Shown here piece after piece: positions 27,500-63,613 of a stretch of DNA of 64,000 nucleotides. Source of the DNA: Octopus vulgaris (Eukaryota). The stretch spans positions 164,052,001-164,116,000 of the forward strand of contig OX597817.1 of the NCBI GenBank assembly GCA_951406725.2, in the 5' to 3' direction. The notes under the pieces are model-generated. The model ran no database searches, was not told where the DNA came from, and saw only the letters and a list, made by a program, of their open reading frames with translations. The first letter of the stretch is position 1. The number at the start of each line of letters is the position of its first letter. Position numbers and translations under genes: made by a program.

Positions 27500-27602
27500 A
27501 GAGTAAGTACATAAGTGTGAAAGAAGGTGGAAAAAATAGTCCTCGAATACCGGAGGTAGAGTAATATGCTTTATTAACAAATCTGCAAAGGCATCACAAA
27601 AA

Positions 27603-27640
27603 CTGTTACTCAGAGTTTCACGTTCCCGTTCGTCGGGCAG
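27603..27640 (-). ncRNA. Minimal hammerhead motif in the left arm of a fold-back (27569-27726)
   Basis: Minus strand CTGC-CCGACGA-ACG(GGAA)CGT-GAAA-CTC(T)GAG-TA-ACAG. A degenerate plus-strand mirror lies at 27655-27692. Confidence 0.65.
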
Positions 27641-27788
27641 TTTTGGTTGAGAATCTGTCCGCTGAACAGGAACGTGAAACTCTGAGTAACAGTCTTCGTG
27701 ATGCCTTCGCAGCTTTATTGATAAAGTGTGTGCATGTGTGTGTGTGTACGTGTGTGTGTGTGTGTGTGTACGTTTGATTGTATTTATT

Positions 27789-27843
<55 letters not shown>

Positions 27844-28704
27844 TTTACTATTGAGTATGTGTATATGTGTATGTTATATGTTTCTTTTGCTAAAATAGCC
27901 ATAAAAAAAGAAAGTGTGAGAGAATATACTTAGAGAAATATATGGAAATTTTTTCCTGATTCCGTTTCTGTTCAACTCATAAAATCGTGTCCTGTTGGAT
28001 TATTTTGAATATAAACTACTTGAAAACATCAAACGTCACTCTTCATCTCAAATGTGTACTTAATGTCATTCCTGTAGACAAACTATTCTTGGCAATGCTA
28101 CAAGAGAAAAAAAATAACTTATACAAAATATACAATTACACATTTTTAATCTATCATATTTAGTATAGAAAGAATCAATAATTAATAGTAAGCTAGGGTT
28201 TTGAAACCTAGAAAGTCATATTATTATTGTAAATATACTGAAAGGATGCATGATTATAGATGGGATAAGGGAATTATGTGGTGAGTGGAAAAATATATAT
28301 TTTTTTACTTATAGAATTTTGTTCCAGCTTTCAAATGTGCTGTCATTTTAGAAATATCGAGAACATCAAATGCGCTGGAAAAAATGTCTCAATTTGATTT
28401 AATGACAAGCTGTATGTTCGAGACCTTAAAATACTAAGTTTAACATAGTTTCGCAAATATTCATTTTATTATTTAAGTTAAAAGTAAAGTTCGAGCTGTC
28501 GGGGGCTGCTACTGTCATAAACCTTAGTTTACCATCATCAATTACAACAGATGAAGTAGGGTCCTGTGTGTTGTCGCTCAACCTGCTAAAAATAACTGCC
28601 AAATCTCCTTCAAATCACGTCTTGCTGTTTTCAATAAATACGCTGCCAACAAAGCACGCGGACTTCTGTTTTTGATTCGATGGTCATTCGGAATGCTCAC
28701 AGCA

Positions 28705-28960
28705 GCCATATTCCTACCGCTCTATGTCACGCTGGTGAGACCCATATTGGAGTATGGGATTCAAGCCTCTTCTCCTTATCTCCTCAAAGACATACATCAT
28801 CTCGAAAGAGTCTAGAAGCTGGCTATCCGCTCGGTTCAAAGTCTCTCTTGACCAGAAATGGCCTGAACTCTTTGTATGACCACCCTCCCTGTACATAACT
28901 CTTTGCCCCCCTACCTGGCCTTGCTTTTGCTTTTTGAGTCAATAAAAATTAAATTAAATT
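28705..28960 (+). mobile_element. CR1-clade LINE fragment
   Basis: FLPLYVTLVRPILEYGIQASSPYLLKDIHHLERV; A-rich tail. Confidence 0.7.
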
Positions 28961-29340
28961 TTAAAAAATAAAGGAAGGATACACTGGAAAATGTACTGTT
29001 GGATATACAAAACCACAGAATGGTCACTGCTAGAACGTCTATGATTATAGGTCTGTTCATCCAAGGCGGACCTAGAATTTACCAACAACTAGTTATGATA
29101 ATACTCTAAACACATTATTAAGCTTGATCAATTGTGTAATATAGCAGGACAGGTCTCAGCACATTCAGACCTCTTTTCTTATCAGGGTTTCGTTGCTGAT
29201 GTTGATTTTTAACTCATATTGCATTTGTATTTCAAACTTACTACTCATATCAATATATTTTTTTTACTTGAATCTCTCATTTTCTACTTCCGTCGCTTGA
29301 TTTCTTTTTATTCTGTTCTTCTTCTCCTTCTCTCTCTCTC

Positions 29341-29392
<52 letters not shown>

Positions 29393-29880
29393 ATATATAT
29401 ATATATATATAATTTACAAATGAGGGTGAAAAATTTAATATTAATTTGATAATACCATCAATTTAACACCAAGTGGCTTAGTACATAAAACCCAGGGATA
29501 CAATATAAATTTATACATAAATATATAAATTTATACATAAATACAATATAAATTTATACATAAATTATAGATGCTATGTAAGTAAAATTACATATTACAT
29601 TAATAATGAAACAATTGTCCAGGGTTAATCTATTTTTTCGTTATTTTTCACTTGCCCAACGTTAAATGTTGTGTTATTTCTCCTTGGAAACAATTTTTAG
29701 TGGCTATACCATAGTGGATCTATTTTTAGCACTAGAGTCGACCACATAGTGGTTACTCTCTCATATTTATGTGTATATATATATATATAAGAAATAGCTA
29801 TAATCTCTTTGACTGCTATTTCTAAATTCGGTGTGCGGTAAGGCAATTCGTTGCTAAACCCTTAATTGCTTAGTATTACT

Positions 29881-29938
<58 letters not shown>

Positions 29939-30950
29939 TTACTCTTTTACTCTTTTCAGTCATTTGACTTCGGCCACGCTGGAGCACCGCCTTCAGTCGA
30001 GCAAATCGACCACAGGACTTATTCTTTGTAAGCCTAGTACTTATTCTATCGGTCTCTTTTGTCGAAACGCTAAGTTACGGGGACGTAAACACACCAGCAT
30101 CGGTTGTCAAGCGATGTTGGGGGGACAAACACAGACACAAACACACACACACATGTATATATATACATATATACGACGGGCTTCTTTCAGTTTCTGTCTA
30201 CCAAATCCATTCACAAGGCTTTGGTCGGCCCGAGGCTATAGTAGAAGACAGTTGCCCAAGGTGCCACGCAGTGGGACTGAAGCCGGAACCATGTGGCTGG
30301 TAAGCAAGCTACTTACCACACAGCCACTCCTACGCTTATATATATATACATATATATACCCTACTTCTCCGGCATCATTTTTATCCTGTTTTCTATTCCC
30401 TCCTCTATAAACAAAACTACCACCCAACTACGTCCAACCACTTATTTCTAGTATCTCACATAACCTAGACTATCCTACTTAATCTTATAATCTTGCAAAC
30501 TTTTAAGATTCACCCTTCCCCATCCCCTCCCCTCTTTATGTTCATTTACTTTACACTTCAACCTTACACGACCTAGTTTTCCTAGCTTATTCGCTCGTAC
30601 TAACTACTTTGCTTAACCTATTACCTCTAAAAGTCTTTTACATTTTAACCTTTTCTCACCTTTCTGTTTCATTCATTTCTTCTTCCATAAACAACAGTAC
30701 CACCCAGTCAACCCCAATCGCACTAACACTCCCATCACTACCAATATGTTCCAAGCACGACCTGACTTCCCGACTTCTCTTCACCTATTTCCTTTTAAAT
30801 TGTCTTTTAATTTTAAACTTTTACCATTCAACATTGCCCAAACATCACTTCCTCTTTTCCTAGTGCCTTTTCACTCTACATTTTAACACAACAGAGTTAT
30901 CTTTATTCTTTTCTATGTTATGCATTTTCATACCTATAATTACAACCTTT

Positions 30951-31330
30951 GGAGGCGCAATGGCCCAGTGGTTAGGGCAGCGGACTCGCGGTCATAGGAT
31001 CGCGGTTTCGATTCCCAGACCGGGCGTTGTGAGTGTTTATTGAGCGAAAACACCTAAAGCTCCACGAGGCTCCGGCAGGGGATGGTGGTGATCCCTGCTG
31101 TACTCTTTCACCACAACTTTCTCTCACTCTTACTTCCTGTTTCTGTTGTACCTGTATTTCAAAGGGGCCGGCCTTGTCACTCTCTGTGTCACGCTGAATA
31201 TCCCCGAGAACTACGTTAAGGGTACACGTGTCTGTGGAGTGCTCAGCCACTTACACGTTAATTTCACGAGCAGGCTGTTCCGTTGGTTCGTATCAACCGG
31301 AACCCTCGTCGTCGTAACCGACGGAGTGCT
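30951..31330 (+). mobile_element. SINE family B (tRNA-Arg-like head, similar to octopus OR SINEs). Other copies: 10768-11095, 25435-25742(-), 26468-26762, 41123-41288, 43375-43653(-), 49294-49672, 60392-60692
   Basis: GGAGGCGCAATGGCCCAGTGGTTAGGGCAGCGGACTCGCGG...GGTTTCGATTCCC head with A and B boxes and a TCG anticodon-like triplet. Confidence 0.9.
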
Positions 31331-31669
31331 TCCATCCAATTACAACCTTTACATTCTCTCTGTGTTTCAATCTTACTATCGCTTTCTTCATCAATATCAT
31401 TTCATTTATAATTTACTTTTTTCTCTCGATATTATATATCACCATTTACTTCTAGAATTTTTATTTTACTTGTAATTTCGTTACCATCCTAAATTATTAT
31501 GTGTAATAGTATCATCTCCACCATTTCTCTACCTTAACTTCGCATTTACAGCATATGAAAAACACATTTATGAATCGTCTCTGAGGAGACATGAGTCGTA
31601 ATATCTGGCCGTGTTGTAGGATGATAAATATCTCTAGCGTATGTTTGCACGAGCAGTTTTTTTTTTTTT

Positions 31670-36182: not shown

Positions 36183-36263
36183 TCTCGACACATGTTTCGA
36201 AGACTGCATATTCTTAATTCCGAAGGAATAAAGGGTGCATTATGCCGTCTTCTCATCAGGAAA
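36183..36263 (-). ncRNA. Type I hammerhead motif, canonical core
   Basis: Minus strand TTTC-CTGATGA-GAAGAC...GTCTTC-GAAA-CATGTG-TC-GAGA. GUC site; next to (TA)n(GA)n; flanks homologous to 57349-57760. Confidence 0.8.
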
Positions 36264-37992
36264 GACAAGGAACTTATGTCAGCATCATGACGAACAAAAA
36301 CTTTTAGATGACTGCCCACACGGAGTCCATAGTGATAATGAGTGTTTCTGCCTGTCTCTGTCTCTCTTATTTACTCTTGTGGGTTCGGGGTCGTTGTGAA
36401 TTCTTGGCAAAGAAGAAGAAGAAGAAGAAGAAGAAGAAGAAGAAGAAGAAGAAGAAGAAGAAGAAGAAGAAGAAGAAGGAGGAGGAGAAGGAGAAGAAGG
36501 AGAAAGAGGAGAAGGGGAAGAAAAAGATTCTCACGAAGGAAAAAATATGGGAGAATTTGCTTTGGGGTTTGAAATGCACTTGAATATCAAGACGTGTAGT
36601 CGTTTTTAAATGTTGTAATAGATTTACTCAAATACCAAACCGGTTTCCACAATTTTTTGCTTATCGGTGGTAAAAATAAATTAATAAAGGGTTTGGGAGA
36701 GTTTAAAGTTACGATGTAAAATTCGGAAAATGTTACTTTGTAACTTATTTGTTTTGACGGACGTCATCAAAATTACAGCCAATCAAAACTTGATCCTTTA
36801 CCGTAAAAACATATATATACTATAAAGATTTGGATTTATAACATTTCAAACAGGGTAAAGAGACCCATACATTTCGGCTGAACAAACGAATAAGGTGAAG
36901 AGGCTCATACACTTCGGCTGAAATTAAGAAAAGAACTCTTACATGCATCACGACAGAAACTGCAAAATTTTTTTTTTCTTCCTCCCCATTTTTTTCTCTT
37001 TCTTCCTTTTTCTTTATAAAAATTTAATATGACTGAACTTTCAATCATGTATATTAGTTATGATCAGGGCGGTGAGCTGGCAGAATCGTTAGCACACCGG
37101 GGGAAATGCTTAGCAGTATCTCGTCTGCCGTTACGTTCTGAGTTCAAATTCCGCCAAGTTCAAGGTTGAATTTGCCTGTCATCCTTTCGGGGTCGATAAA
37201 TAAAGTACCAGTTTCGAACTGGGGTCGATGTAATCGACTTAATCCCTTTGTCTATCCTTGTTTGTCCCCTCTATGTTTAGCCCCTTGTGGTCAGTAAAGA
37301 AATATATATTTGTTATGATCTTTATCGAACAATTACTCTTTTATTACTGTCTTTCCCCGTGAAACGCAGTGAAATTTGTGAACATTTCATCGTTTAAACA
37401 TATTTTTTCGGATGTTACCTCGTTACTTTAAACTCTCCGAAACACCTTACTTATTTATTTATTTATTTTTATTTTTACCATTGATAAGCAAAACAATTGT
37501 CGAAACCGGTTTGGTATTTGAATAAATCTATTGCAAAATTTTAAAACGACAAGTTTTGAGATTTAGGGGCATTTTCAAACCCCAAAATAAATTATCGTAT
37601 ATATTCTTTTATTTATTTTAGTCATTTGACTGCGGTCATGTTGGAGAACTGCCTTTAGTCAAAGAAATCGACCCAAAGACTTATTTTTTGTAATCCTAGT
37701 ACTTATTCTATCGGACTTTTTTACCGAACCACTAAGTTACGGGGACATAAACACACCAACAAGCGATGGTGGGAGGACAAACTCAGACACATAAACATAT
37801 ACATATATATATACGACGGGCTTCCTTCAGTTTCCGACTACCAAATCCACTCACAAGGCTTTGGTCGGCCCAGGGCTATCGTAGAAGACAATTGCCCGAG
37901 ATACCACTCAGTGGGACTGAACCCAGAACCCTTTCCATCTTCCGTCACTCTTTATTCAAATAATATATATGTTAATATTAATATATATAGGT

Positions 37993-38045
37993 TACACTGA
38001 TGAGGCTCGGGGTTTACATACCCTAAAGCCGAAACCTAGTTTGTG
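37993..38045 (+). ncRNA. Type I hammerhead motif, canonical core
   Basis: TACA-CTGATGA-GGCT..GGG(TTTACATA)CCC..AGCC-GAAA-C(CTA)G-TT-TGTG. Confidence 0.7.
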
Positions 38046-38620
38046 GACATCCCTAATTGCATAATATTTTTATTTTGTGCTGTTAAATGTTTTAATTCTT
38101 TGTTTTCCTCGCATACTGATTTTCTCTGTTATCTTGGTGCAGTACGGTGGATTAATTTAAGACTTTAGCTCTTATTTCTAGCATCATTATGCTTCGTGCA
38201 AATTTATAATTCATAGCTATTTAATACTATTGCGCCTGCGATCCACCTATGTCACTGCTGGTGATATCATCCACAGATGATATGAACAGTAGTGACGTCT
38301 GATTTCAAATCACAGTGCTTGAATGTTTTGCTTATATATATATATATATATATACATTAAATTTATGCGTCTCGAAACAAACCGATAGAAATCTCTAAAA
38401 AATTCGTTATTACCGTATTGGTCCAATTTCGGGGTTAATTCACAAGAAATTTTCCTCTTCAGCGGCAAATACGCGAGATATAAATGAAATATTTATTCAT
38501 ACCCATGCGCCGAAGATTTTTCTATTTTGGATATATTTGAGGTACTTAAGTCTGCTCGGGACTTGGTGCTTGCTTCTTCCATGGGTATGAATAAGTATTT
38601 CATTTATATCTCGCGTATGT

Positions 38621-38677
38621 GCCGCTGAAGAGGGGGAAATTTTTTGTGAATTAACCCCGAAATTGGACCAATACGGT
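38621..38677 (+). ncRNA. Type I hammerhead motif in the right arm of a fold-back (38355-38733)
   Basis: GCCG-CTGAAGA-GGGG...CCCC-GAAA-TTGG(A)CCAA-TA-CGGT. The minus-strand mirror at 38412-38466 has a shortened stem II. Confidence 0.8.
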
Positions 38678-38889
38678 AATAACGAATTTTTTAGAGATTT
38701 CTATTGGTTTGTTTCGAGACGCATAAATTTAATGGTTATCGACAATTTTTTGTTTCGGCGTATCTGTCATTAGAATTTTTCTTCTGCCCTTATCTTGTAA
38801 ATTATGTATAAATTTTACCTTTAAAGGCATTTTTTGATATGCTGGCCATTGATAAAATTTTTTTCCCGAAAAAATTTTTATCCTATATC

Positions 38890-38971
<82 letters not shown>

Positions 38972-41870: not shown

Positions 41871-44289
41871 GTATGAATTCTTATTTTCTTCGTGATTCTA
41901 TAATATATTAAATTTTATTCATTCTGTATTTTTTCTTCCTTATGACGTAATTCTCACGTTTTTTCTTTCGTTGCTTTTATTTCTATCAGATTTGTCGCAA
42001 TATGAAATTGATCGATTAGGTTATTTTAAGAATTTTCATAATCTTCATCTTGTACTATGATGCTAGTCACAAAGGCGGCGAGCTAGCAGAAACGTTAGCG
42101 TGCCGGACAAAATGCTAAGCGATATTTCTTCCAGGTCGTTACGTTCTGAATTCAAATTCCGCTGCGGTTGACTGCCTTTCATCTTTTCGGGGTGTCGATA
42201 AATTGAATACTAGCTAAGCATTGGAGTCGATGTAATCGACTTTGGGGCCAGAATTTGAAACCAATATTATGCTATTCAAAACAGTACTTTTTGGGAAAAA
42301 CCAACCTTCCCTTTAGTAGGGGTGAGTATTGAAAAATAATCATACAAATTGCTTTGTTTTGTAAAATTAGTTTTTAAATGTTTAAGATTGTCCATCACCA
42401 TAGCGTAGAAACAAAAATTACTTCGTCGCTCCCGTTTCTCTACAGACATCGATCTATGGATGTTCAAACTAAGCATCAGTTACATCAATTTAACTAGTAT
42501 GGCAGGACATATCAATTTTATGAGCACTATCCCTCCGTCTTTGATTAATTAAAAAAAAAAGTCAGAAGGAAAAAGATATTGCAAGCGTTAGAGGTTTACC
42601 ACATCATCGATTCCACCTCGATAATTGTGTCTGCATCACTCGACACTGACCACCCAAGACTTAATTACTTGACGATTTATTTTTCCATATTGAGGTGAAA
42701 CTTGATATAATCTTATTTCGTGTTTTCTTTGCATCATTTCTCAATAAAATCTCCTATGTTAATAATATATGTACAATTATTTCTTCAACTGATATTTTCT
42801 ATGGCAATATATATTTTTTTCTCTTTGAACTAAGCTAACTTTCTCGTCTATAATTTACTCATTTTTTCCATATAACATTAAAAAGTAGTTGCAATATCTT
42901 ACATTTCTTCACTTCTTTCTATATTTCTGTTCTGCCAACTGACTGTCAGTCGTATATTCCAGTTTTCATTTCCTTCTCCCTTACCTGGTTCGATTTATTT
43001 CTACTCATATTTATCAGAAAATGCTATTGCATCTACTAGTACACTGCATATTGCAAATCTGATATATTTTAGGCTGTCTTTACTTCATACAATAGATAAC
43101 ATAGGTATTATTCATCTGGATTTTTTTTGTTTGTCTACATATATTTTTCCGTGCTGAGTTCAAACGTGATCTTAGCTTCCGCATGCTATCGATATTTTCG
43201 GAAAGAATTTTAGCTTTGTAGTTAGACATTCTATAATGCAACTCTCACCTGGGGCTAGATGCTGGCTTCGTTTTCATACCTATGTTGAGAGAAAAATTAA
43301 TCGATTTCATGTTGAATTTGCTGAAAATGTTCCAAATGACTGCATTTAATAAATAAATGACAAACTAAAAATGTTTGTTCCTTCTCGAACCATGCCTGGC
43401 TCATAAGAGCCGGTTTCCTTGGCGTATAGGTTCCCCACCTAGACGGGACGCCGGTCCGTCGCAGATAAGCTGCAACATGCAGGAGGAAAGTTGTGGCGAA
43501 AGAGTCAGCAGAAGTTCGCCATTACCTTTTGCCGGAGCTGCGTGGAGCTTAGGTGTTTCGCTCATAAACACACACATCACCCGGTTTGAGATTCGAACCC
43601 GCGATCCCTCGACCGCGTGTCCGCTGCTCTAACCACTAGGCCATGTGCCTCCACAAAAAAAATATGAAACAGTCCTAAAATTAACATTAAAAGTGCTTTG
43701 AAGTTTGCAGTTTTATTTTGTGACTGCTTTCATCGTTTTTAACCAGAGACGTTACATATTCACTCATCATGGCAATATCTCAGCGGCCTTGTTAGCTTTG
43801 TCGGTGAAATATTTCCCCGTGCTCCTCACTGATGACATCAAGGTTTTCATGGAGAAAACCAAGATGCGAATACAAGCTAAGTTCTTTTAAAAACACCCAA
43901 CACACACACACTCTTTTACTCTTTGTGTGTGTGTGTGTTTATGTGTCTGTGTATATATGTGTGTGTGTATGAAGTACACTTTTTTTGGTTGTTATAATTG
44001 CTTCTATTGACGCTATTTGTCTTCATGCAATGGAAATATTAATAGCAAATTAATTTCAATTCTCGTGAAAGAAACTTTGAAATACATTTAAACACTCTAG
44101 GTATCTTGTTAAAATCTTATGTGATTTGAATAAAATCTTATGTGCTTGATTTTATGACATATATAAGCCGGTCCTTTCTTTTACATTGGCGAGCTCAAAT
44201 TTTTACTACGATCCCTTAATTAATGAATAATTCCATTTAAAAAGTTCACAAATTTGATAAAAAGAAAAACCCAAACTTGCTATATTTAA

Positions 44290-44705
44290 TTCGGTTTTCG
44301 TGCCTACGATCGTGAATGTTGGGTAGTGACCGAAAGAGTATGATTGTGAATACAAGGGGCCGAAATAGGGTTCCTTCGAGAGATCTCTGAGGTATCGTTA
44401 CTCTTTAGAATGGGTAGCTCGGCGATCAGGGAATCTTTCCAGGTCGTGTTTCTCCGCATTGACAGATCACAGCTCCGGTACAAGTGACACGTGATTAGAA
44501 TGTCGCAAGAACGGATCTTAAGACGGATTGATTAAACTTATCTAACCGGCAGGAGGCCTACGGGTAGACCAAGAATTAGACGGGTGGATGATATCCATAG
44601 TCTCAGTTCGTTACGCTTAAGAACCCAGCTGAAAAATTGTAACGACGGTTACTTCTGAAAGGGCCCTATGCAGGAGGTGCCTGAAGACTCTACCCAACAA
44701 TCCTT
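44290..44705 (+). mobile_element. RTE-clade LINE 3' fragment (mirror copy at about 47705-48120)
   Basis: Broken translation ECWVVTER...IQGAEIGFLREI...HVIRMSQER...PTGRRPTGRPRIR.VDDI. Confidence 0.65.
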
Positions 44706-44959
44706 ACAGGAATGGTCGGTGGAGGAGATGGATGGACAACATCCTGATTCTGGATGTTATTTTAAAATAATTAGTACAAATACAGACATAGAAGCACACA
44801 CACACACACACACATGTATATAGATATATGCGCATATATATATATATATATATATACATGTGTATATGTTTGGGTGTGTGTATATATATATATATATGTA
44901 TGAATATATGTATATGCATATATATATCTGTATGTATGTATGTATATATATATATGTAT

Positions 44960-44990
<31 letters not shown>

Positions 44991-44991
<1 letters not shown>

Positions 44992-45495
44992 CGTAAATCC
45001 TGGAGTATAGTCCGCCCTTGACTATAATACGCAGAGGATTTTTAGGGGGCTAAACCTTCTGTATAATACGCACCCCTTCCCTAACTTGAGTCAAGGAGGT
45101 CTATATAACGTCCTTGGTTTATAAAAAAGGTATATGGTAACGTCCTTTATTATTATTGTATATATAACATAATGCAAACGTGTAGCTTTTTTGTGCATTT
45201 CGTTTGCAGAAATTAAAGAAAAACAGTAATAACAGTAATGACGTTTAATAAATGTTGCATACTGCAAGTTATGGATGATTTTTTTATGACTTCATTACTT
45301 TCAGACAATGAAGTCATAAGGTATTTTCGCGCTTGACATCACAAATGCATCTGAATAAAAATTGCTGGACAGCAAATGGAGACTCGGACATTGCTTAGAA
45401 AATAATTTTCATTTTTAACCTCGTATATAGTACGGACTAGGGATTTTGACTATTAAATTTTGGGGAAAAAATGCGAATTATACTCGAGGGTTTAC

Positions 45496-45497
<2 letters not shown>
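44991..45497. mobile_element. Tc1/mariner-pogo type MITE (second copy at 46878-47383)
   Basis: TIRs CCGTAAATCCT(G/C)GAGTATA...TATACTCGAGGGTTTACGG flanked by TA; non-coding. Confidence 0.8.
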
Positions 45498-45559
<62 letters not shown>

Positions 45560-45948
45560 TTATTTGAGGGAATAAAATCCAAACTTACAAGGAAAAATAA
45601 TTCAAATTAGAAATACTAAATCAAATTCCACACAATATAATATATATATATATATAAAATATTAGAAAAAAACACCTTTCAAATTAGAAATACATCAATT
45701 AAAATGAATAATTAAATTACACCATCCAGAAAATTACATTTAACAGAAAAGTTAAAATTACTTTTACTTGTTTCAGTCATTTGACTGCGGCCGTGCTGGA
45801 GCACCGTCTTTAGTCGAGCAAATCGACCCTAGGACTTATTCTTTGTAATCCTAGTACTTATTCTATCGGTCTCTTTTGCCGGACCGCTAAGTTACGGAGA
45901 CGTAAACACACCAGCATCGGTTGTCAAGCGATGTTGGGGGGATAAACA

Positions 45949-46029
<81 letters not shown>

Positions 46030-46484
46030 ACATATATACGATGGGCTTCTTTCAGTTTCCGTCTACCAAATCCATTGACAAGGCTTTGGTCGGCCCGAGG
46101 CTATAGTAGAAGACACTTACTCAAGGTGCCACGCAGTGGGACTGAACCTGGAACCATGAGGTTGGTAAGCAAGCTACTTACCACACAGCCACTCCTACGC
46201 CTATGTTCATATAAGTTATAATAATGCTTGCCACCAACTCCCTGAACTTAAAACTTTTGTGAATGCGATGTACCATGTTGAAGTCGGAGAAATCTGAAAG
46301 AAAATTAACATAGCTGAAAGAGAAGCATGATGTACATTTTGCACTGTATTAGATAGCTCGTTCACTTCATTAAAAATCTACTAACCCCCTCGCAAATTAA
46401 ATGGCTTAACACTGAAATCATAATTCTATGATAAAAATTCTTAATCCTTTTATTTTCCTTTTACAGTTTCCAGTTCCATTCAAC

Positions 46485-46572
46485 ATGATCAATAAAAGCG
46501 GTTGTTTAACTATTTTTATAGTTTTTTGCTATTTGGCCAATGTTGGAGTATTTTCCTTTCATTATCGCAGTG
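46485..46572 (+). CDS. First coding exon of a secreted Cys-rich protein gene; signal peptide MINKSGCLTIFIVFCYLANVGVFSFHYRS(G)
   Basis: Pyrimidine tract with AG acceptor (46466 or 46473), CAACATG start context, basic-then-hydrophobic N-terminus, GTATGT donor at 46573. Ends in phase 1, matching the 50806 exon (G+GT = Gly). Confidence 0.7.
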
Positions 46573-46865
46573 GTATGTCAACTTTTATCCGTTTTCTGTT
46601 TCCTTTATACATCGTTAGGACTTTCATATATATATATACATATACACAAAACATTTTAGAAAAAAACACCTTTTATCAATTCAAAATGAATAATCAAATT
46701 ACACCATCTAGAAAATTACATATAATAGAAAAGTTAAAATTAAAATAACAATAAAAAGTAAAGATTAAGTAGATTACAAAAATAATATAATGTATATTAT
46801 ATACATTATATTATTTTTGTAATTTACTTAATCTTTACTTTTTATTGTTATTTTAATTTTAACTT

Positions 46866-47383
46866 TATATATATATACCGTAAACCCTCGAGTATAATTC
46901 GCATTTTTTCCCCAAAATTTAATAGTCAAAATTTCTATTGCGTACAATATACGAGGTTGAAAATGAAAATTATTTTCTAAGCAATGTCCGAGTCTCCATT
47001 TGCTGTCCAGCAATTTTTATTCAGATGCATTTGTGATGTCAAGCGCGAAAATACCTTATGACTTCATTGTCTGAAAGTAATGAAGTCATAAAAGAATCAT
47101 CCATAACTTGCAGTATGCAACATTTATTAAACGTCATTACTGTTATTACTGTTTTTCTTTAATTTCTGCAAACGAAATGCACAAAAAAGCTACACTTTTG
47201 CATTATGTTATACATACAATAATAATAAAGGACGTTACCATATACCTTTTTTATAAACCAAGGACGTTATATAGACCTCCTTGACTCAAGTTAGGGAAGG
47301 GGTGCGTATTATACACAAGGTTTAGCCCCCTAAAAATCCTCTGCGTATTATAGTCAAGGGCGGACTATACTCGAGGATTTACG

Positions 47384-47426
<43 letters not shown>

Positions 47427-47570
47427 CATATATATATATATACATACATACATACAAATATATATATATATGCATATACATATATTCATACATATATATA
47501 TATATACACACCCAAACATATACACATGTATATATATACATATATATATATGCGCATATATCTATATACA

Positions 47571-47622
<52 letters not shown>

Positions 47623-48493
47623 TCTATGTCTGTATTTGTACTAATTATTTTAAAATAACATCCAGAATCAGGATATTGTCCATCCATCTCCTCCACCGAC
47701 CATTCCTGTAAGGATTGTTGGGTAGAGTCTTCAGGCACCTCTGCATAGGGCCCTTTCAGAAGTAACCGTCATTACAATTTTTCAGCTGGGTTCTTAAGCG
47801 TAACGAACTGAGACTATGGATATCATCCACCCGTCTAATTCTTGGTCTACCCGTAGGCCTCCTGCCGGTTAGATAAGTTTAATCAATCCGTCTTAAGATC
47901 CGTTCTTGCGACATTCTAATCACGTGTCACTTGTACCGGAGCTGTGATCTGTCAATGCAGAGAAACACGACATGGAAAGATTCCCTGATCGCCGAGTTAC
48001 CCATTCTAAAGAGTAACGATACCTCAGAGATCTCTCGAAGAAACCCTATTTCGGCTCCTTGTATTCACAATCATACTCTTTCGGTCACTACCCAACATTC
48101 ACGATCGTAGGCACGAAAACCAAATTAAATATAGCAAGTTTGGGTTTTTCTTTTTATCAAATTTGTGAACTTTTTAAATGGAATTATTCATTAATTAAGG
48201 GATCGTAGTAAAAATTTGAGCTCGCCAATGTAAAAGAAAGGACCGGCTTATATATGTCATAAAATCAAGCACATAAGATTTTATTCAAATCACATAGGAT
48301 TTTAACAAGATACCTGAGAGTGTTTAAATGTATTTCAAAGTTTCTTTCACGAGAATTGAAATTAATTTGCTATTAATATTTCCATTGCATGAAGACAAAT
48401 AGCGTCAATAGAAGCAATTATAACAACCAAAAAAAGTGTACTTCATACACACACACATATATACACAGACACATAAACATACACACACACAAA
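46866..48493. repeat. Right arm of the ~1.6-kb inverted duplication
   Basis: Example: GAAGTACACTTTTTTTGGTTGTTATAATTGC at about 43971 versus GCAATTATAACAACCAAAAAAAGTGTACTTC at about 48414. Confidence 0.95.
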
Positions 48494-50791: not shown

Positions 50792-50805
50792 CTTTATCTC
50801 AAAAG

Positions 50806-50933
50806 GTAAACCACTGTTCCCCTGGTGTCTTGATGTATCAAGGCCTTACTGCGGAATTCGCTGTCCCCTCAGTGGATTTGATACAGATGGACGAACTGGA
50901 TGTCCGACCTGTCGCTGTCGAAATCGTTGCGAG
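50806..50933 (+). CDS. Coding exon, antistasin-like module KPLFPWCLDVSRPYCGIRCPLSGFDTDGRTGCPTCRCRNRCE
   Basis: AAAAG acceptor after a pyrimidine-rich tract, GTAAGG donor at 50934. C-x3-CP-x2-GF-x2-D-x3-GC-x2-CxC spacing is antistasin-like. Starts phase 1, ends phase 0. Confidence 0.85.
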
Positions 50934-50974
50934 GTAAGGTACACTCAACCGAAACTTCTTAATTCTACTATCTG

Positions 50975-51954: not shown

Positions 51955-52330
51955 TTACCTTTACTCCCTCCACTCACTTAGCCATCATTCAAATAGCTCT
52001 TTTGTCTTAATAACGGTCAATCACACAGTAATTTCCCTTTGTTTAACGGTCATTTCTATATATATATATATTTATATATATATATATACAAGATAAGAAA
52101 ATGGAGAAATACATCTAAATCAAATATCAATTACCAGATAATACTCAATCACATACTTTATTAAACCACCACATAAGAGACTGTAGGGTTAAATATAAAA
52201 AGCAGAACAAATCAGTGTACATAAAGGAATGTACATAAAAAAGTGTACATAAAAGAGTAATGTTGTATAAGTAGAATATATATAAAAGAGAATATAAATA
52301 TAAGTAAATATAAATATAAGTATAAATTAC

Positions 52331-52457
52331 ATCTTACAGCTGTTTCGGCCATGTCGATAAGTATGTCTCATTTTACCAATATTAGCCCTTTATGGTTGGT
52401 CAATATATAGATATAAATGAGACATTAACAAAAATATCACAAGGCCTCTTCGGAGAT
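52331..52457 (-). ncRNA. Inverted copy of the same hammerhead (5' inverted terminal repeat)
   Basis: Reverse complement of 56613-56739. Core and junction stems are identical; differences are confined to the stem II extension. Confidence 0.8.
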
Positions 52458-52666
52458 TAGCAGTATATTGGATATATGTTATCCCATAAAGGGTTGCATT
52501 TACAACCCCTATCTCAATTTGTAACTATAGTTAACTTTCTGAGGAATATGAATTGCTAAAGCTTGTATACTTGAAGCATCCACTCATTACTCTAAGTACT
52601 GACAGTGTATGCGAATACACCCAAGTATAGTACATTTATTCCTGAAAGATCATTACTGCTGGTAAA

Positions 52667-53854
52667 ATGGAGAAAATACTAATCAATTCATCAATGAAGG
52701 ATGTACCTATCCCTACTAAGGACCACTACACCAAAGAGCTAATTTATAGAATTAATGAGTTCATTCACAGGATAAGATGGAAGATTTTCCACCACGAAAA
52801 CAGTGATAGCAAAATAAACCAAGAATGTAGGAACGAGGCCACCCGCAATGGTACAGGAAATACCTATGAAGAAATAATCAAACTAACTGGCAACACATTT
52901 AAATCTAGGAAATCTCCACCACCAAATAAACACCTGGATAACTTTGAACAGGAATTATGGGACACCATCAAGAATATAAAATTTAAAAACCACCCATTGA
53001 GGAATAACCCGCACCAGAGGAGGTTAAAGGAACTAATAAGAACTCTTAAGGGTAAGGATGGTATTTTAACCCATTCTGATAAAACTAGAAACATTTATAA
53101 TATTGACATCCTCACATACCATGAACTATTGCATAAAGAAATTACAAAGAAGTATAAAACTGTACCTTTCAATACACTTAGGGAACTAAACTTAGAGATA
53201 AGAGATATAATGTTTGATTATTATCTGGAAGATAAAACCGAACCTTATACCCCCATGAGACCGAGAATTACACTTAAAGACCATAAGGAAAACTTTCTTG
53301 GTAACACTCAGGTCAGACTGATTTGCCCTACAAAGTCAGACTTAGGTAAATTGAGTGAACTTATTCTAGACAAATACTTACCAACTATACGTAACAAGAT
53401 TAAACTCAGCCTATGGAAAAACACCCAGGGTGCATTGGATTGGTTCTCTACAATTCAGGTTAGTAATAGCAGTAGCAATAAATTTATCCAATTTGATATA
53501 CAAAATTACTACTCCTCCATTAACCCTATTATACTAAATAAGGCTTTAATTTTTGCTAAGAAACATACCAACTTAAGTATGGGGGAGATAAAGGTTATCT
53601 TAACAGCTAGAAAAACATTAATAGAGTTTGATAACAAACTACGGGCTAGAAAAGACACACGCAATTTATTTGACATCACCATGGGCTCGCCGGATTCAGC
53701 GGAAGTGACGGATCTAGTGGGGATGTATCTACTTGATAACCTTAATAGGGAATTCCCTGAATTAAAGGGCGGACTATATAGGGACGATGCTTTATTTCTA
53801 GTCAGAAACACTTCTAATAGGAGGCTAGAATTACTGAAAAAAACGACTACATAA
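52667..53854 (+). pseudogene. PLE reverse transcriptase (N-terminal part to the catalytic motif), frameshifted at the A-run near 53840
   Basis: Motifs KDVPIP, RIRWK, SDKTRNIY, TLKDHKENF, VRLICPTKSDLG, FIQFDIQNYYSSI, FDITMGSPDSAEVTDLVG, GLYRDDAL. NYLDV follows in another frame near 53910. Confidence 0.9.
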
Positions 53855-53919
53855 ATTTTTTTAAAGTTTTGGCTTATCCGTAGTTATTGAAAATGAAAAC
53901 TACTCTGCCAATTATTTAG

Positions 53920-55013
53920 ATGTCAATTGCAACCTTTCTAACGGCATTGCTGAAGGCAGGCTACAAAAATAAAATTTGGTATATACCCAATAATAATCCT
54001 TCGAACACAGGTGGAACTATTAGGAGTAGGGATATTAACAATAGGCATAGTAACATTGATAATATTTATGGTAATAATGGAGTTCATCTAAACAATAATA
54101 ATAATAGGAATAAGAATAACAATAAAGTCACTAATAAAACCAATCTAAAGGGGAATTCTAGGCATTATATTGACAATACTAAGGGTAGAAAGCATATGGA
54201 TTGGAAGAATAATAGAGTTTTTCCCAAGAATAACAACTTGAGGAGTAATCCACATAGTGATGACGATACTCTATGGCTAATAATACCATATGCAATGCAG
54301 ATTAAAACCGATATAGTCATAACTATACATAAAGTAATATATAGACTATTTACTAAGGGTAAGAATAAATTTAGCCAAATAATTAACAATAGAACTATTA
54401 GAATAGGATATAGTATCACGAATAATCTAGCACCATCATCTCCTCCTTCAACAACAAGAAATTGGATTGCTTCTATAATGATAGAAAGATAAACATGGGT
54501 AGTAGTGAAAATAAGTGCAATAATATCAACAGAAATAGGGCTACGGAGATTTCTGCCAGGGTTAAATCTCCTCAATCTGTTAATGGCTGCAATTGCAGAA
54601 GCAAGAATCAATGTGTGTTTGGTAATAAATGTCTGAGGAGAGAGGTGGTTTACCAATGCACTGTAAATACACAATATAATAGCAGGGTGTGCATTGGTGC
54701 GACTAAAAATAGTATAAAACAACGGCTAAACTCTCATAGATATACTTTTAAAAATAAAAATAGGATGAACTCTACGGGGTTAAGTACGTATATCTGGGAA
54801 CTCAAGAGTAAGAACATAGATTTTAAATTAGATTGGGAAATACTAACAACTGCACCTGTATACAATAGTAGAAATAAAAAATGCTCTTTATGTATCAATG
54901 AAATTTTCTTCATCATCAAAGCCGGCCAATCCATTATTAACAGCATTAATGAGCGAAATTTTTTTGCCTTCACAAATTGGCGTACACTTTCTCTAAATTT
55001 AAATAACATCTAA
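53920..55013 (+). pseudogene. PLE linker and GIY-YIG endonuclease, broken by frameshifts
   Basis: IRIGYS-x-TNNL linker motif, then CNCR-x4-C-x5-CL-x3-VVYQC...VCIGAT...KQRLNSHRYTF...STGLSTYIWELK...WEIL...CSLCINE. YIG appears as CIG. Confidence 0.85.
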
Positions 55014-55456
55014 TTCTTCTACCAGTAACCTTTTAGCATTCATCTATATAGGACTGTACTATTGGTCCTTACAATTTATAATTTATAACTTTTTTGTCTC
55101 CATGTATTTGTTCTACATTAATTGTTTCTGTCCCGACTGAACCCCACAGAGTCTTTTATAGGTGTAAGATGTATATGCGCATCATATCTTAGGACAGTAG
55201 TTTGAGTTTTTACTATACCAATATGTAATATGTAAGAGTCTATAATTACTATAAGTTGTTTATCTCGATGAGCATATAATGTGGGATTTTCTTCCTTTTT
55301 TACGGTTGGTTTGTTGAGGGTTGTGCGAGGGCGTGCATGCACATGTATGTGCATGTGGGTGCATTCCGGCGTATCCACTTATACTTACTATATTAGGTTT
55401 ATCTTTATGCCCTCTTTAATTTGTATTCCATTTTATTTATCTATTTATCTATACAT

Positions 55457-55503
<47 letters not shown>

Positions 55504-56612
55504 TATTTATATATTTAATTATTTATTTTTGTTTATTTGGCACTTACTAATCTATAATTAATTTAATTTATAATTAATAAACTTATTCTAAATTAATAGT
55601 AACCTCTGTAGGTGTGTGAAAATGTGTATGTGTACGTATATATGTTTTTGTACATATAGGTATGATCGTGGGTGGATGTACGGATGTATGTTTTTATTAC
55701 ACATATGAGCACGCAAGTGCGTACTTGGATGTGTATATATGTATATGCGAATATTCATTCATGGGTGGATATAAATATGGATTTTATTTGTACGTATGAG
55801 TGCGTAGATATATATTTAAATATATATATATGTGTGTGTGTGCGAAAGTTCCCTGACACAGTATAGGAAAGTGTATTAATATTTATGCGTATATGCGGAT
55901 GTGCGTGTGAGTGTGTGTGTTAGTGTTAGACACTGCTGCCTGTACTGATATGTCTATAAGCCATGCGATGACAGACATGCACTCTGCAATTTATTGTAGA
56001 GATGTGTCGGGGTGTATTCATGTGTGTGTACATGTGTGTGTGAGTTTCTGTGTGGATGTGTGGGTTTTGGGTTAGATGTGGATGTGTATGTTTTGCTTGT
56101 ACGGTGTGGTGGAGGTCGGGCGGTTCTCAATTGACCAACCGTGAGGAAGATAATGATAATTTTAAATTCAAATCCAATAGTGTATTTATGTCATAAGGAA
56201 AACTATTAACTGGAACACGGACATACATATATTCCGCTCTGGATCATAATGTAAGTTATTAATAATATTATGAATGATAATGATGATAACATTAATGGTA
56301 TTGACAACGATAATGATGCTAACTTTAATGACACTTTAGAAATTATTATGAAGTAATATAATGTTCTATTGACTATGTACATATGCATCTAAGTACTAAT
56401 TTGTGTATGTTTATTATCACAATATTAAGTCGAAAAACTGAGATATTGGGTGTTTACTAATTTATATTATTTATTTATATCATTATGTAAATGTATATTT
56501 TTATATGTATAAGAGTGTGAGTATATGCACTCATATGTATATGTATATGTTGTATTGTGGGTACGCACCCACACCCATGTGGGTATATATGTAGACTGAG
56601 TTATATTACATA

Positions 56613-56739
56613 ATCTCCGAAGAGGCCTTATGATATTTTTGTTAATGTCTCATTTATATCCATATATTGACCTACCATAAAAGGCTAATATTGGTAAAAT
56701 GAGACATACTTATCTACATGGCCGAAACAGCTGTAAGAT
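56613..56739 (+). ncRNA. Type I hammerhead ribozyme motif with a very long stem II (3' terminal repeat of the PLE)
   Basis: ATCT-CCGAAGA-GGCC...(TGTCTCATTT/AAATGAGACA)...GGCC-GAAA-CAGCTG-TA-AGAT. Stems I, II and palindromic III present; U4C core variant; GUA site. Confidence 0.8.
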
Positions 56740-57154
56740 GTAATTTATACTTATATTTATATTTACTTATATTTATATTCTCTTTTATATATATTCTACT
56801 TATTATACAACATTACTCTTTTATGTACACTTTTTTTATGTACATTCCTTTATGTACACTGATTTGTTCTGCTTTTTATATTTAACCCTACAGTCTCTTA
56901 TGTGGTGGTTTAATAAAGTATGTGATTGAGTATTATCTGGTAATTGATATTTGACTTAGATGTATTTCTCCATTTTCTTATCTTGTATTAGTAATTTGTG
57001 GTAAATCATTTTACTTTTGCCCATATAATACAGTAAATGAATTGATTGCATCGCAATCATTAACATTTATGTATTAACTTTGTTGGGTACTTCACTAGCA
57101 GTATATTGGATATATGTTATCCCATATAGGGTTGCATTTACAACCCCTATCTCA

Positions 57155-57204
<50 letters not shown>

Positions 57205-57619
57205 AAATGGAAAGATGAATTTTCTTGTTACAGATTATTCAAAAGTTTAACCGATACCTGGGTAGCAAAAATCACAGCAGAAAAAACACGGTTGGAGATA
57301 AGACCATATGGTGTTGCAACCGTGCGTTGGTGCGGATAATTGAAGTTTAATATAATTAGTGAATTGAAGAAATGGAGTTGAACGAAGATTGTACAGAATT
57401 CCTTTTATTACATTCTACACATGTTTCAAAGGCCACAATTTTCCAAATTCTGATTAAATAAGGATACCATATTGCAGCTTTCTTTCAGGAAAAACCAGGA
57501 ATTACGTTGTCAGAACAAAACAAAACAGAGGCGCAGCAAAGCAATTCGAACGAGGAAGCTCCTTAAGAGCCCATGGATAAACCTGTTTTGTTTTGTTCTG
57601 ACAACGTAATTCCTGGTTT

Positions 57620-57699
57620 TTCCTGAAGAGAAAGCTGCAATATGGTATCCTTATTTAATCAGAATTTGGAAAATTGTGGCCTTTGAAACATGTGTAGAA
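57620..57699 (+). ncRNA. Type I hammerhead motif in the right arm of a fold-back (57349-57760)
   Basis: TTC-CTGAAGA-GAAAGCTGCAAT...ATTGTGGCCTTT-GAAA-CATGTG-TA-GAA. The mirror at 57414-57491 has lost one core G. Confidence 0.7.
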
Positions 57700-57753
57700 T
57701 GTAATAAAAGGAATTCTGTACAATCTTCGTTCAACTCCATTTCTTCCATTCAC

Positions 57754-57756
<3 letters not shown>

Positions 57757-57838
<82 letters not shown>

Positions 57839-57843
57839 ATATA

Positions 57844-57899
<56 letters not shown>

Positions 57900-59110: not shown

Positions 59111-59247
59111 ATATTCATACGTGTGCTATTTGTTGCTTCAGCAGCCAGTATGAAGAAAATTAATGACGTTCTAACAATCTTTGATATTCCCAAGACGTTT
59201 GCTCAGAATAATTGCTGAAATCATCTCATTTACTGTAATTCCCACAG

Positions 59248-59347
59248 GAAGTTACGTGTAACCCTGGATATACGTGCCAGGTAAAAGCAGGCTCAAAAAA
59301 ATGTCCTTCGGGCTTGTGCAAGACGGAGGAGGCCAAATGTGTTCCTG
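59248..59347 (+). CDS. Coding exon, small Cys module EVTCNPGYTCQVKAGSKKCPSGLCKTEEAKCVP
   Basis: CCCACAG acceptor, GTAAGC donor at 59348. Phase 0 start joins the previous exon to give ...NRCEEVTCNPGYTC. Open frame, ends phase 1. Confidence 0.85.
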
Positions 59348-59513: not shown

Positions 59514-59568
<55 letters not shown>

Positions 59569-61228: not shown

Positions 61229-61611
61229 CTAGCAGTATCGCCCGGCGTTGCTCAGGTTTGTAAGGGAAATAACTATAAAGCATTTTTAAAGAGTTATAGC
61301 CAAAAAATAGCAAAAAAATAGAAAAAAATGATGGTAAATTTTTTTTTTAGTTAAAAAAGGTGGAGTTGCGTCCCCTAGACAGTCTGTGGTTTGTGTTTCT
61401 GATTCTCGACCCCATGTCGAATTTATCGATTTTTTTCAGAACTGGGGGAACTTTTCAAAATTTTCGCTGCGTTAGTTTTGAATTATGACATTGGGCTAAG
61501 TGTTTGTCAAGTTTTATCAGAATCGGTTGAAAGCCGTGGTCAGGGTGAGGGTACAAGCAAACAGACACACAGAAACACGCACAGACAAACTGCCGTTTAT
61601 ATAGAGAGAGA
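61229..61611 (-). mobile_element. Non-autonomous Helitron
   Basis: Minus strand begins TC and ends with a GC hairpin (CCTGAGCAACGCCGGG) and CTAG; inserted between A and T. Confidence 0.8.
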
Positions 61612-61864
61612 TGATGATGATGATGATGATGATGGGGTGATGCTATCATCATCATCATCACTACTATCACCACCACCACCACCATCATCACCGTGGCTAA
61701 CAAACTAACAACCATTGTACAATAAGCAGCCAACGAGGGAGCCTCTGCGTAGTTGTTCGACTTACTGGAAATAGTAACTAAATCGAGTCACAGCCTTCTG
61801 GCTTCATTGAATGAAGATGGGGTGATCGCAGATAAGGTAGAATACCTTTGATTATTTAAGAAAC

Positions 61865-62610
61865 TTTAGCATGCCGGGCGAAATGCTCAGCGGTATTTCG
61901 TCTGCCGCTACGTTCTGAGTTCAAATTCCGCCGAGGTCGACTTTGCCTTTCATCCTTCCAGAGTCGATTAAATAAGTGCCAGTTACACACAGGGGCGATA
62001 TAATCGGCTTAATCCGTTTGTCTGTCCTTGTTTGTCCTCTCTGTGTTTAGTCCCTTGTGGGTAGTAAAGAAATAGGTATTCCGTCTGTCTTTATGTTCTG
62101 AGTTCAAATTCCGCCGAGGTCGACTTTGCCTTTCATCCTTCCAGAGTCGATTAAATAAGTGCCAGTTACACACTGGGGCGATATAATCGACTTAATCCGT
62201 TTGTCTGTCCTTGTTTGTCCTCTCTGTGTTTAGTCCCTTGTGGGTAGTAAAGAAATAGGTATTCCGTCTGTCTTTATGTTCTGAGTTCAAATTCCGCCGA
62301 GGTCGACTTTGCCTTTCATCCTTCCAGAGTCGATTAAATAAGTGCCAGTTACACACTGGGGCGATATAATCGGCTTAATCCGTTTGTCTGTCCTTGTTTG
62401 TCCTCTCTGTGTTTAGTCCCTTGTGGGTAGTAAAGAAATAGGTATTCCGTCTGTCTTTATGTTCTGAGTTCAAATTCCGCCGAGGTCGTCTTTGCCTTTC
62501 ATCCCTTCGGGGGTCGATAAATTAAGTACCAGTTGCGAACTGGGGTCGATCTGATCGACTTCATTCTCTCCCAAAAGTTTCGGGCTTTGTGCCTAGAGTA
62601 GAAAAAATTA
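61865..62610 (+). repeat. Tandem array of a SINE C-derived unit, period 183 bp, nearly four units
   Basis: GTTCTGAGTTCAAATTCCGCCGAGG recurs at 61912, 62095, 62278 and 62461. Confidence 0.95.
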
Positions 62611-62751
62611 TTCGAGTCTACTCGATCAAAGCTGACCAAGAACTAAAACAACACCGACAACAACACCGACAACAACGATTTTAATAATTTTTTTGTTTTG
62701 CTTTGTTTTGTTATTTTTCATTGATTTTTTTTTTGTTTTTGTTTTTGTCAG

Positions 62752-62931
62752 CCGGAAGTCTCGGTAAGGTGGAGAATATTTGTGAAGCCGGTACACCGAA
62801 TGGCTATTGTTTTGGTAAGGTTTCACCCGTCGTCAACTGTATTGGCAATTATAAATGCGTCATTCATCCGAGCAACAACTACGGGCTTTGTTGCCTGAAA
62901 CCCTCTGCAACCACGTTCAGCAATGTCCCAT
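62752..62931 (+). CDS. Coding exon, lustrin-like six-Cys module (A)GSLGKVENICEAGTPNGYCFGKVSPVVNCIGNYKCVIHPSNNYGLCCLKPSATTFSNVP; gene continues past the window
   Basis: Long T-rich tract with CAG acceptor, GTAAAT donor at 62932, symmetric phase 1-1 exon of 180 nt. CxxGxP...C...CxxxYxCxIHPxxxYxxCC resembles lustrin cysteine-rich repeats. Confidence 0.8.
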
Positions 62932-63155
62932 GTAAATATTACAACCTTTCTTTCTTTCTTTTTATTATATTTTTTTTTATCACACCGGTGTTGGTATATT
63001 TGGGTCCCCCGTAACTTAACGTTTCGGCAATAAAGACCGACAGATTAAGTTCCAGTCTTAAAATAAAATTAAGTTCTGGGATCGATTCAATCGACTAAAA
63101 ATTCTTCAAGGTGATGCCCCAGCATGACCGCAATCTAATGACTGAAACAAGTAAA

Positions 63156-63236
<81 letters not shown>

Positions 63237-63376
63237 CAGCAAAACAATTAAGATTCAAATGAATTCAAATGAATATGGTACTTAACTTAGATGCACCAGA
63301 ATTCTTTATGGTATTAACCATAAAATTATGTGGGGTGATTATAACCAAGAAAAAAGCAACAAGAATGGATCGGTAG

Positions 63377-63463
63377 TTTAGTACAATTGTTTCATACTAT
63401 AAACATTTTATTTAAAGCTGCAAATATTACAGCAAATATAATGTCAAGTATTCATCAGCTAAA
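63377..63463 (-). ncRNA. Type I hammerhead motif, canonical core, in a fold-back (63348-63544)
   Basis: Minus strand TTTAG-CTGATGA-ATACT...AGTAT-GAAA-CAATTG-TA-CTAAA. The plus-strand mirror at about 63476-63544 has only the 3' half. (TA)n on both flanks. Confidence 0.8.
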
Positions 63464-63542
63464 TCACATATAGGTTAAATAAAATGTTTATAGTATGAAA
63501 CAATTGTACTAAACTACCGTTCCATTCTTGTTGCTTTTTTCT

Positions 63543-63613
<71 letters not shown>

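Follow-up and report, generated by a model that had tools for sequence, protein, structure and literature searches.

We analyzed a 64,000-nucleotide stretch of the Octopus vulgaris genome (GCA_951406725.2, contig OX597817.1, positions 164,052,001 to 164,116,000 of the forward strand; hereafter the window, in whose positions coordinates are given), in which hammerhead ribozymes lie in inverted repeats, here called fold-backs. The six fold-back loci in the window belong to six unrelated families, labelled F1–F6 after loci 1–6, every one hammerhead-bearing. Judged by sequence, the fold-backs are 5'-truncated 3' ends of Penelope-like retrotransposons set head to head in (TA)n, with Hydra-type motifs in F4 and F5. 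The new observation is that each family has two fixed 3' ends and that a fold-back pairs one short with one long end; the polarity and the one-sided tail were already known. In our view, fold-backs probably arise when twin priming sets out from two fixed starts and end joining then unites the products. The origin of Penelope inverted repeats and of the one-sided tail is an open question in PMC8557442 and PMC3846280 (statements on published work refer to the accessible passages of the papers cited). The near-absolute pairing rule ties the genomic pattern to two reverse transcriptase (RT) starts observed in vitro and allows a sharp test with an existing assay.

Two 3' ends and the pairing of arms

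For F1 and F3–F6, 348 partly overlapping loci were retrieved and mapped on natural reference copies, and duplicate junctions were removed. Among these sampled copies, 179 of 181 adjacent opposite-strand pairs were divergent; of the remaining two, one consisted of two tails in a single TA run and the other was a low-complexity match. A sequence-only reading of the window had claimed a fixed polarity, which this orientation scoring of paired copies on samples bears out, and a stereotyped integration step, with which the persistence of the polarity beyond the window agrees. It had also treated the polarity as unexplained; however, head-to-head is already published as the most frequent Penelope arrangement (PMC3846280), and the typical Penelope-like insert is described as an inverted 5'-truncated copy, often with the tail at one end (PMC8557442). 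Against 13 family references, direct joins were divergent in 189 of 189 cases, and a TA run separated convergent neighbors in 24 of 24. Manual reading of 50 arbitrary 10-kb stretches yielded 12 TA-flanked fold-backs, and all ten with readable orientation were divergent; the density in a 500-kb sample was approximately 1 per 40 kb. An adjacent partner was present at 116 of 169 tail-bearing loci, indicating that the fold-back is a common outcome, and several apparent single inserts have partner arms of merely ~8–20 nt. Different families were also stacked tail to tail in one TA run (22 cross-family cases at many loci), indicating that TA runs are landing sites for repeated insertion. A related arrangement was seen in a 359-nt hammerhead tandem array (L241:2104-4768), where two minus-strand units stand head-to-head with five plus-strand units, their ends 48 nt apart.

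In each family the 3' ends fall sharply at two positions, a short and a long one, ~60–172 nt apart. The one-sided tail measures ~60 nt in F1, 81 nt in F3, 172 nt in F4, 151 nt in F5 and 103 nt in F6, and the arms counted at the two end positions were 42 and 45 for F5, 44 and 44 for F6, and 25 and 26 for F4. The 179 divergent pairs comprised 162 short+long, two long+long and one short+short pair as well as 14 with one unclassified end; that is, 162 of 165 classifiable pairs were short+long (binomial p 3e-44 vs one half), and so were 105 of 116 pairs from tail queries. The long arm lay on the left in 78 pairs and on the right in 84. Toward the 5' side, the short arm reached further in 74 of the 162 pairs, the long arm in 51, and the two stopped within 10 nt of each other in 37; the long arm lay wholly inside the tail in 18 pairs, and multi-piece arms occurred in 17 of the 162. 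In the 74 pairs, the tail is missing from the short arm and the inner part from the long arm; therefore, neither can have been copied from the other. The sequence-only reading had offered fold-back or twin priming as the integration step; twin priming is the likelier, and plain fold-back copying is ruled out for these 74 of 162 pairs.

Among the 162 pairs, just one junction coordinate recurred, three times, at a 4-nt palindrome, indicating that fold-backs are built at every insertion and are not mobile as units. A miniature inverted-repeat transposable element or fold-back DNA transposon that moves as a fixed palindrome is thereby ruled out. F5 has many identical copies with near-intact open reading frames (ORFs), and its pattern is therefore little blurred by decay. 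A motif common to the short and long ends of a family was sought and was not above background. Two F3 arms, at window position 38355 (left arm of locus 3) and in L080, stop 79 nt short of the short end, where the short-to-long distance is 81 nt, perhaps reflecting a third, evenly spaced start site. Two F4 fold-backs that lie 2 kb apart with identical breakpoints, one short+short and one long+long (L239:1050-1400 and 3092-3785), are two of the three rule-breakers and are probably a rearranged duplication or an assembly effect.

Junctions were scored at 102 sites (from a first set of 124 pairs, F1 and the edge-cut and panel-limited cases being left aside), and a panel of copies served as the reference, a single reference per family being confounded by its private changes. 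Inserted letters, often local duplications, were present at 42 of the 102, and the insert-free joins overlapped by at least 2 nt in 43 of 60 cases vs 225 of 841 simulated (p 4e-12). Such microhomology and inserts resemble polymerase-theta end joining; template jumps of the RT could equally produce such junctions. Minor alleles were common to both arms of a locus in 13 of 16 cases for F4, 13 of 17 for F5 and 91 of 114 for F6, against 13–16% between loci. The arms of F1 and F3 had no allele sharing and were as diverged as unrelated copies (12.4 vs 10.7% and 4.6 vs 4.7%, respectively), which speaks against gene conversion and artefact. Given this divergence, gene conversion is unlikely to lie behind the allele sharing, and for F4–F6 it is possible. 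Among 96 single-piece pairs from tail queries, 26 were near-symmetric, with starts at most 10 nt apart, vs 7.2 expected (p 0.0002), as if both cDNAs ran off one RNA end or some were true hairpins.

The 5' ends of F6 arms cluster around the predicted ribozyme cut site, in an interval that opens 12 nt ahead of it and closes ~30 nt past it (short arms 14/41, long arms 21/41; L201-L230, L291-L320, L390-L399), and no pile-up at the cut site was found in F3, F4 or F5. Ribozyme-cleaved RNA is therefore not supported as a general template; the F6 pile-up also extends on both sides of the site. Two single junctions were unusual. In one (L023:1020-1673), an F3 short arm is joined head-to-head to an F6 long arm with a 4-nt overlap and TA on both sides, either through two RNAs in one event or through later deletion between stacked inserts. 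In the other, an F5 arm has three TTAGGG-type repeats at its 5' junction (L099:1747-1770), which are possibly filler added by telomerase.

Proposed integration by twin priming, and its alternatives

We propose that the element's endonuclease would cut both microsatellite strands, and that one of the cut ends would prime reverse transcription at the short site and the other at the long site, both starts probably lying on the same RNA. The two cDNAs, truncated separately, would then be joined by microhomology-mediated end joining. The polarity, two fixed ends, short+long rule, variable junctions, microhomology and inserts, and allele sharing between arms support this scheme; from them we infer the use of both sites in one insertion, one RNA for both, and the repair pathway. 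The second primer would be the other target strand, because both outer ends abut (TA)n at fixed element positions. In vitro, AT-rich DNA is cut on both strands by the anole Poseidon protein, which also extends both, and its RT has two internal RNA start sites that bound the tail; a dimer is predicted for it (PMC11167929). A bolder version, to which we give slightly less than an even chance, is that twin priming is obligate and programmed in Penelope-like elements: a dimer would cut both strands, each subunit would start at its own fixed site on one RNA, the tail would be the distance between the starts, the inverted pseudo-LTR (pseudo-long terminal repeat) would be the second cDNA, and host end joining would close the middle. 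If true, this would constitute a third retroelement route to both junctions, one in which the 5' junction is not crossed by second-strand synthesis. No proposal of twin priming for Penelope was found in the literature searched, which took in few subscription papers and no older Penelope reviews.

Several observations weigh against twin priming. Neither an intermediate nor an empty allele turned up. In 78 of 110 pairs the arms overlap by more than 35 nt; overlaps of this width would call for strand displacement, for two RNAs, or for one tandem RNA containing two repeats. The symmetric class, which makes up about one pair in four, would be explained just as well by a true hairpin. If the two cDNAs collided, long arms should accumulate immediately beyond the short site; they do so in F6 (13/34), whereas F3, F4 and F5 show no such accumulation. 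The cross-family join at L023 counts against a single RNA, three pairs break the short+long rule, and 14 have an odd end (seven of those in F3). The in vitro data come from a different clade with a tail of 30–40 nt (PMC11167929). In addition, each genome search returned the best 40 matches, which favours young copies, and no ORF was found for F1, F2, F3 or F6.

The alternative closest to published thinking is a self-priming hairpin, in which a single cDNA, or an antisense template, serves as its own primer and template after folding back, and the endonuclease later cuts one arm down to the short site; hairpin and trimming readings come from Arkhipova 2013 (PMC3846280) and Craig 2021 (PMC8557442). 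The near-symmetric pairs, some of which sit on short palindromes, and the alleles common to both arms would fit it, and random trimming of either arm would also mix which arm reaches further. However, a hairpin without trimming fails for 74 of 162 pairs, 18 long arms have nothing in common with their partner, loops of more than 1 kb would need closing on ~2 nt (L163), and the trimmed arm would need to shed its tail while attached to the target. Moreover, both tail ends are RT start sites in vitro (PMC11167929). We therefore regard the hairpin as unlikely, and the data speak against self-priming as the general route. Twin priming from two different RNA molecules, bound by a dimeric protein and mostly from the same source locus, would allow overlaps of up to ~1 kb with no displacement and would account for the single short+long join across families (L023); the predicted dimer of the anole protein (PMC11167929) is in keeping with it. 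Allele sharing of 76–81% within loci and the excess of symmetric junctions nevertheless favour one molecule, and L023 may be a later deletion because different families often occupy one TA run; two RNAs seem to us improbable. Palindromes beside microsatellites are prone to assembly and library errors, which counts for an artefact. Against this, the arms differ by 1–15%, those of F1 and F3 as much as unrelated copies, the outer ends fall at family-specific sites, and the junctions have microhomology and inserts, so that an assembly or library palindrome artefact is almost inconceivable.

The sequence-only reading had further suggested that the antisense arm masks the ribozyme as a built-in off switch. 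The geometry of this idea stands, and predicted folding agrees with it; selection for masking is not supported, as core damage is at chance level. A transcript through any divergent pair meets the antisense arm first, and predicted stem II pairing at loci 3, 5 and 6 drops to 0 once the entire fold-back is folded. Read-through is plausible at loci 4 and 5, which are flanked by candidate plus-strand exons near 50800-50935 and 59249-59347. Arms were scored vs the commonest base of each of 11 core columns (one column was offset by one base in F1 and F3, leaving the meaning of the tallies unaffected). In 42 two-core pairs, both cores were unchanged in 27, one was changed in 12 and both in three, where independence predicts ~26, 14 and 2; of 106 fold-backs, 29 contained no complete ribozyme, 35 one and 42 two. 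At loci 3 and 5, an arm folded on its own is itself predicted to form hardly any stem II (0.02 and 0.04). In vitro, a minimal hammerhead, the sole one tested as a monomer, gave no cleavage (PMC4209133), and ribozyme mutants had no effect on insertion (PMC11167929). The A-to-I editing that the sequence-only reading had suggested looking for, sought through substitutions between genomic arms, left no A>G excess (F5, 4 vs 4 T>C; F6, 9 vs 13). Consequently, we find it very hard to credit a selected off switch in which an antisense arm transcribed ahead of the ribozyme would mask it and supply double-stranded RNA pathways. The hammerhead is likely a passenger of the 3' repeat and the masking hairpin a by-product. 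At their genomic density, fold-backs are a large passive source of hairpins, with a possible effect on RNA editing or silencing. Overall, the architecture of the fold-backs is a known one; of the earlier inference, the part on integration is upheld and sharpened, and the part on regulation is not.

Fold-back loci and element families in the window

All six inverted repeats named by the sequence-only reading were verified in their places, each with a minus-strand hammerhead in the left arm and a plus-strand hammerhead in the right; all are divergent (0/6 convergent), with arm identities of 85%, 86%, 97%, 98%, 99% and 99% at loci 1–6. Five loci have microsatellite at both insert edges and, as it had noticed, an extra outer piece on one arm; locus 2 is too strongly eroded to tell its outer edges or its short and long ends. 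The places it gave were right, but at loci 1 and 3–6 the inserts reach further, to the (TA)n past the long arm, giving spans of 27498-27726 (locus 1), 38355-38893 (locus 3), 52089-57160 (locus 4), 57199-57757 (locus 5) and 63233-63544 (locus 6). The hammerheads are of a minimal type I with a palindromic helix III of 1–2 bp. With our own descriptor, five strict-core hammerheads were found in the window vs 0 in each of 10 block shuffles. An Rfam search of the window gave no match at the gathering score, and among 150 of 235 rows of its E-value listing there was no hammerhead family, the listed ones being microsatellite matches to miRNA and snoRNA models.

At locus 1, the long arm (27498..27654, minus strand) adjoins (TA)n at 27429-27497 and carries a tail (27498-27568) and a hammerhead at ~27600-27645; the short arm (27652..27726, plus strand) has a hammerhead core altered at several positions. 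Locus 2, of an old family, consists of a left arm (36542..36730, minus; hammerhead ~36633-36673, core altered) and a right arm (37404..37605, plus; hammerhead ~37476-37516, U3-A8 type core), with a dispersed host repeat at 37068-37304 in its spacer. At locus 3, the left arm (38355..38507, minus; hammerhead ~38411-38467) meets the long arm (38506..38893, plus; hammerhead 38620-38678) with a junction overlap of 2 nt, and (TA)n follows at 38893-38967. The short arm of locus 4 (52089..52459, minus; hammerhead ~52331-52458) adjoins (TA)n at 52057-52088, and its long arm (52458..57160, plus; hammerhead ~56613-56740) has its short end at 56988 and its tail at 56989-57160; this arm exceeds one 4638-nt unit, as 52458-52529 recurs as 57096-57167. 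Locus 5, of a young family, combines a long arm (57199..57583, minus; 151-nt tail) that adjoins (TA)n at 57160-57198 and has a 1-nt core deletion in its hammerhead (~57412-57493) with a short arm (57584..57757, plus) whose hammerhead (~57619-57700) is intact, followed by (TA)n at 57758-57896. At locus 6, the long arm (63233..63477, minus; 103-nt tail) adjoins (TA)n at 63186-63232 and carries an intact hammerhead (63377-63463); the short arm (63476..63544, plus) overlaps it by 2 nt at the junction, is 5'-truncated inside stem II and is followed by (TA)n at 63545-63612. Among the listed contigs of four sequencing runs at locus 6, none spans the junction or an empty site, which gives no verdict on presence, polymorphism or expression.

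The claim that one of the two cores is usually damaged fits loci 1, 2, 5 and 6 but not loci 3 and 4, where the core is identical in both arms. TTGATAA (locus 2) and CCGAAGA/CCGACGA (loci 4 and 1) do not count as damage, being variants common in their families, and U3-A8 (PMC4209133) and U4C (PMC3088659) are known natural core variants. Another fold-back family has the minimal hammerhead fold with core G3/C8 swapped and an extra base before G3 in ~10 of 14 arms listed (L269:1517-1799, L270:1919-2235, L062, L203, L262, L294, L313, L321, L345), and from its sequence it also appears to follow the short+long pattern.

The elements had been described as ORF-less, which is not supported for them as a class: F4 and F5 are 5'-truncated ends of coding elements, and locus 4 carries a broken ORF in three frames (52646..55013, plus strand) with an RT (52646-53854; RWK, DKT, YRDD), a linker (53920-54492) and a GIY-YIG-type endonuclease (54426-55013) with CxCx5C and CxxC. 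Elsewhere in the genome, F5 occurs as full-length copies of ~3.7 kb (L231, L232), which include a direct repeat upstream and an open frame of 906 aa; its protein has RWL, DKT, CxxC and CxH (L231, L237) and is without CxCx5C. The F4 and F5 proteins are 49% and 35% identical to each other in two comparisons, the 49% being for the RT. By eye, no CCHH motif was seen in either, and Pfam gave no RT or GIY-YIG match for the element proteins, whose identification is by motifs. F3 is a 461-nt non-coding tandem unit. Partial tandems that give a direct pseudo-LTR occur in F5 (L231, L232), F4 (window) and F3; the hammerhead lies within the terminal repeat in the same sense as the ORF, its cleavage being predicted only, and most copies have microsatellite on both flanks. 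A homologue search returned 97 homologues, at least one of them from Argonauta hians.

Other features of the window include three more single hammerhead-bearing inserts of other families, at 21790-22134 (plus), 36183-36263 (minus) and 37990-38333 (plus). An inverted duplication of 1.5 kb with 98% identity (43971-45497 / 46878-48444) was found to contain no hammerhead; this repeat (43971-48444) and inverted pairs of dispersed host repeats were set apart as another kind than the hammerhead fold-backs. A 530-nt direct duplication lies at 14833-15935, and at 61892-62564 a 183-nt host repeat stands in 3.7 tandem copies. Candidate plus-strand exons of a cysteine-rich gene lie at 50800-50935, 59249-59347 and ~62750-62920, the first with a weak antistasin match below the Pfam cut-off.

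Comparison with known systems

The fold-backs resemble endonuclease-containing Penelope-like elements (PMC3846280, PMC8557442) in the inverted 5'-truncated copy at the 5' end, the head-to-head arrangement, the often one-sided tail, the partial tandems and the hammerhead in the terminal repeat. They differ in that the tails here are ~60–172 nt vs 30–40 published, and in that 162 of 165 pairs carry the tail on a single arm, which may be either of the two; this goes beyond an optional tail. The Hydra clade is defined by RWK and DKT, a CxCx5C linker, CxxC and CxH beside conserved E and N with no CCHH, a (TA)n target and hammerheads (PMC8557442), and the supplement of that paper contains Hydra-1_Obim from Octopus bimaculoides. 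F4 and F5 agree with this clade in the C-terminal endonuclease, RWK/RWL, DKT, CxxC beside a conserved E, the hammerhead and the (TA)n target, a placement made by motifs alone; however, the units here are 3.7 kb (F5) and 4.6 kb (F4; 4638 nt) vs generally <3 kb, and F5 departs from the clade in the CxCx5C linker.

Anole Poseidon (Frangieh 2024, PMC11167929) is alike in its two RT starts that bound the tail, the cutting and extension of both strands, the AT-rich target and the dispensable ribozyme. Its starts sit inside the ORF, whereas in F5 the long end is placed 48 nt before the ATG, and the accessible main text does not assign the two starts to separate arms of an inverted insertion. LINE-1 twin priming (Ostertag and Kazazian 2001, described in PMC10760644) likewise involves a second priming at the target, cDNAs joined by microhomology and a divergent product; in contrast, both starts here are fixed and internal, there is no poly(A), a wide overlap of the arms is usual, and the outcome is common. 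Minimal hammerheads and non-LTR retrozymes (PMC4209133, PMC7229834, bioRxiv 10.64898/2026.07.22.740005) have in common with our families the type I fold and a palindromic helix III of 1–2 bp, and F3 is comparable as a 461-nt non-coding tandem. In Schistosoma, dual hammerheads on opposite strands lie 100–700 bp apart (PMC4209133). Unlike non-LTR retrozymes, for which the accessible passages of PMC7229834 and bioRxiv 10.64898/2026.07.22.740005 do not describe inverted insertions, F3 follows the two-end, head-to-head rule of the coding families.

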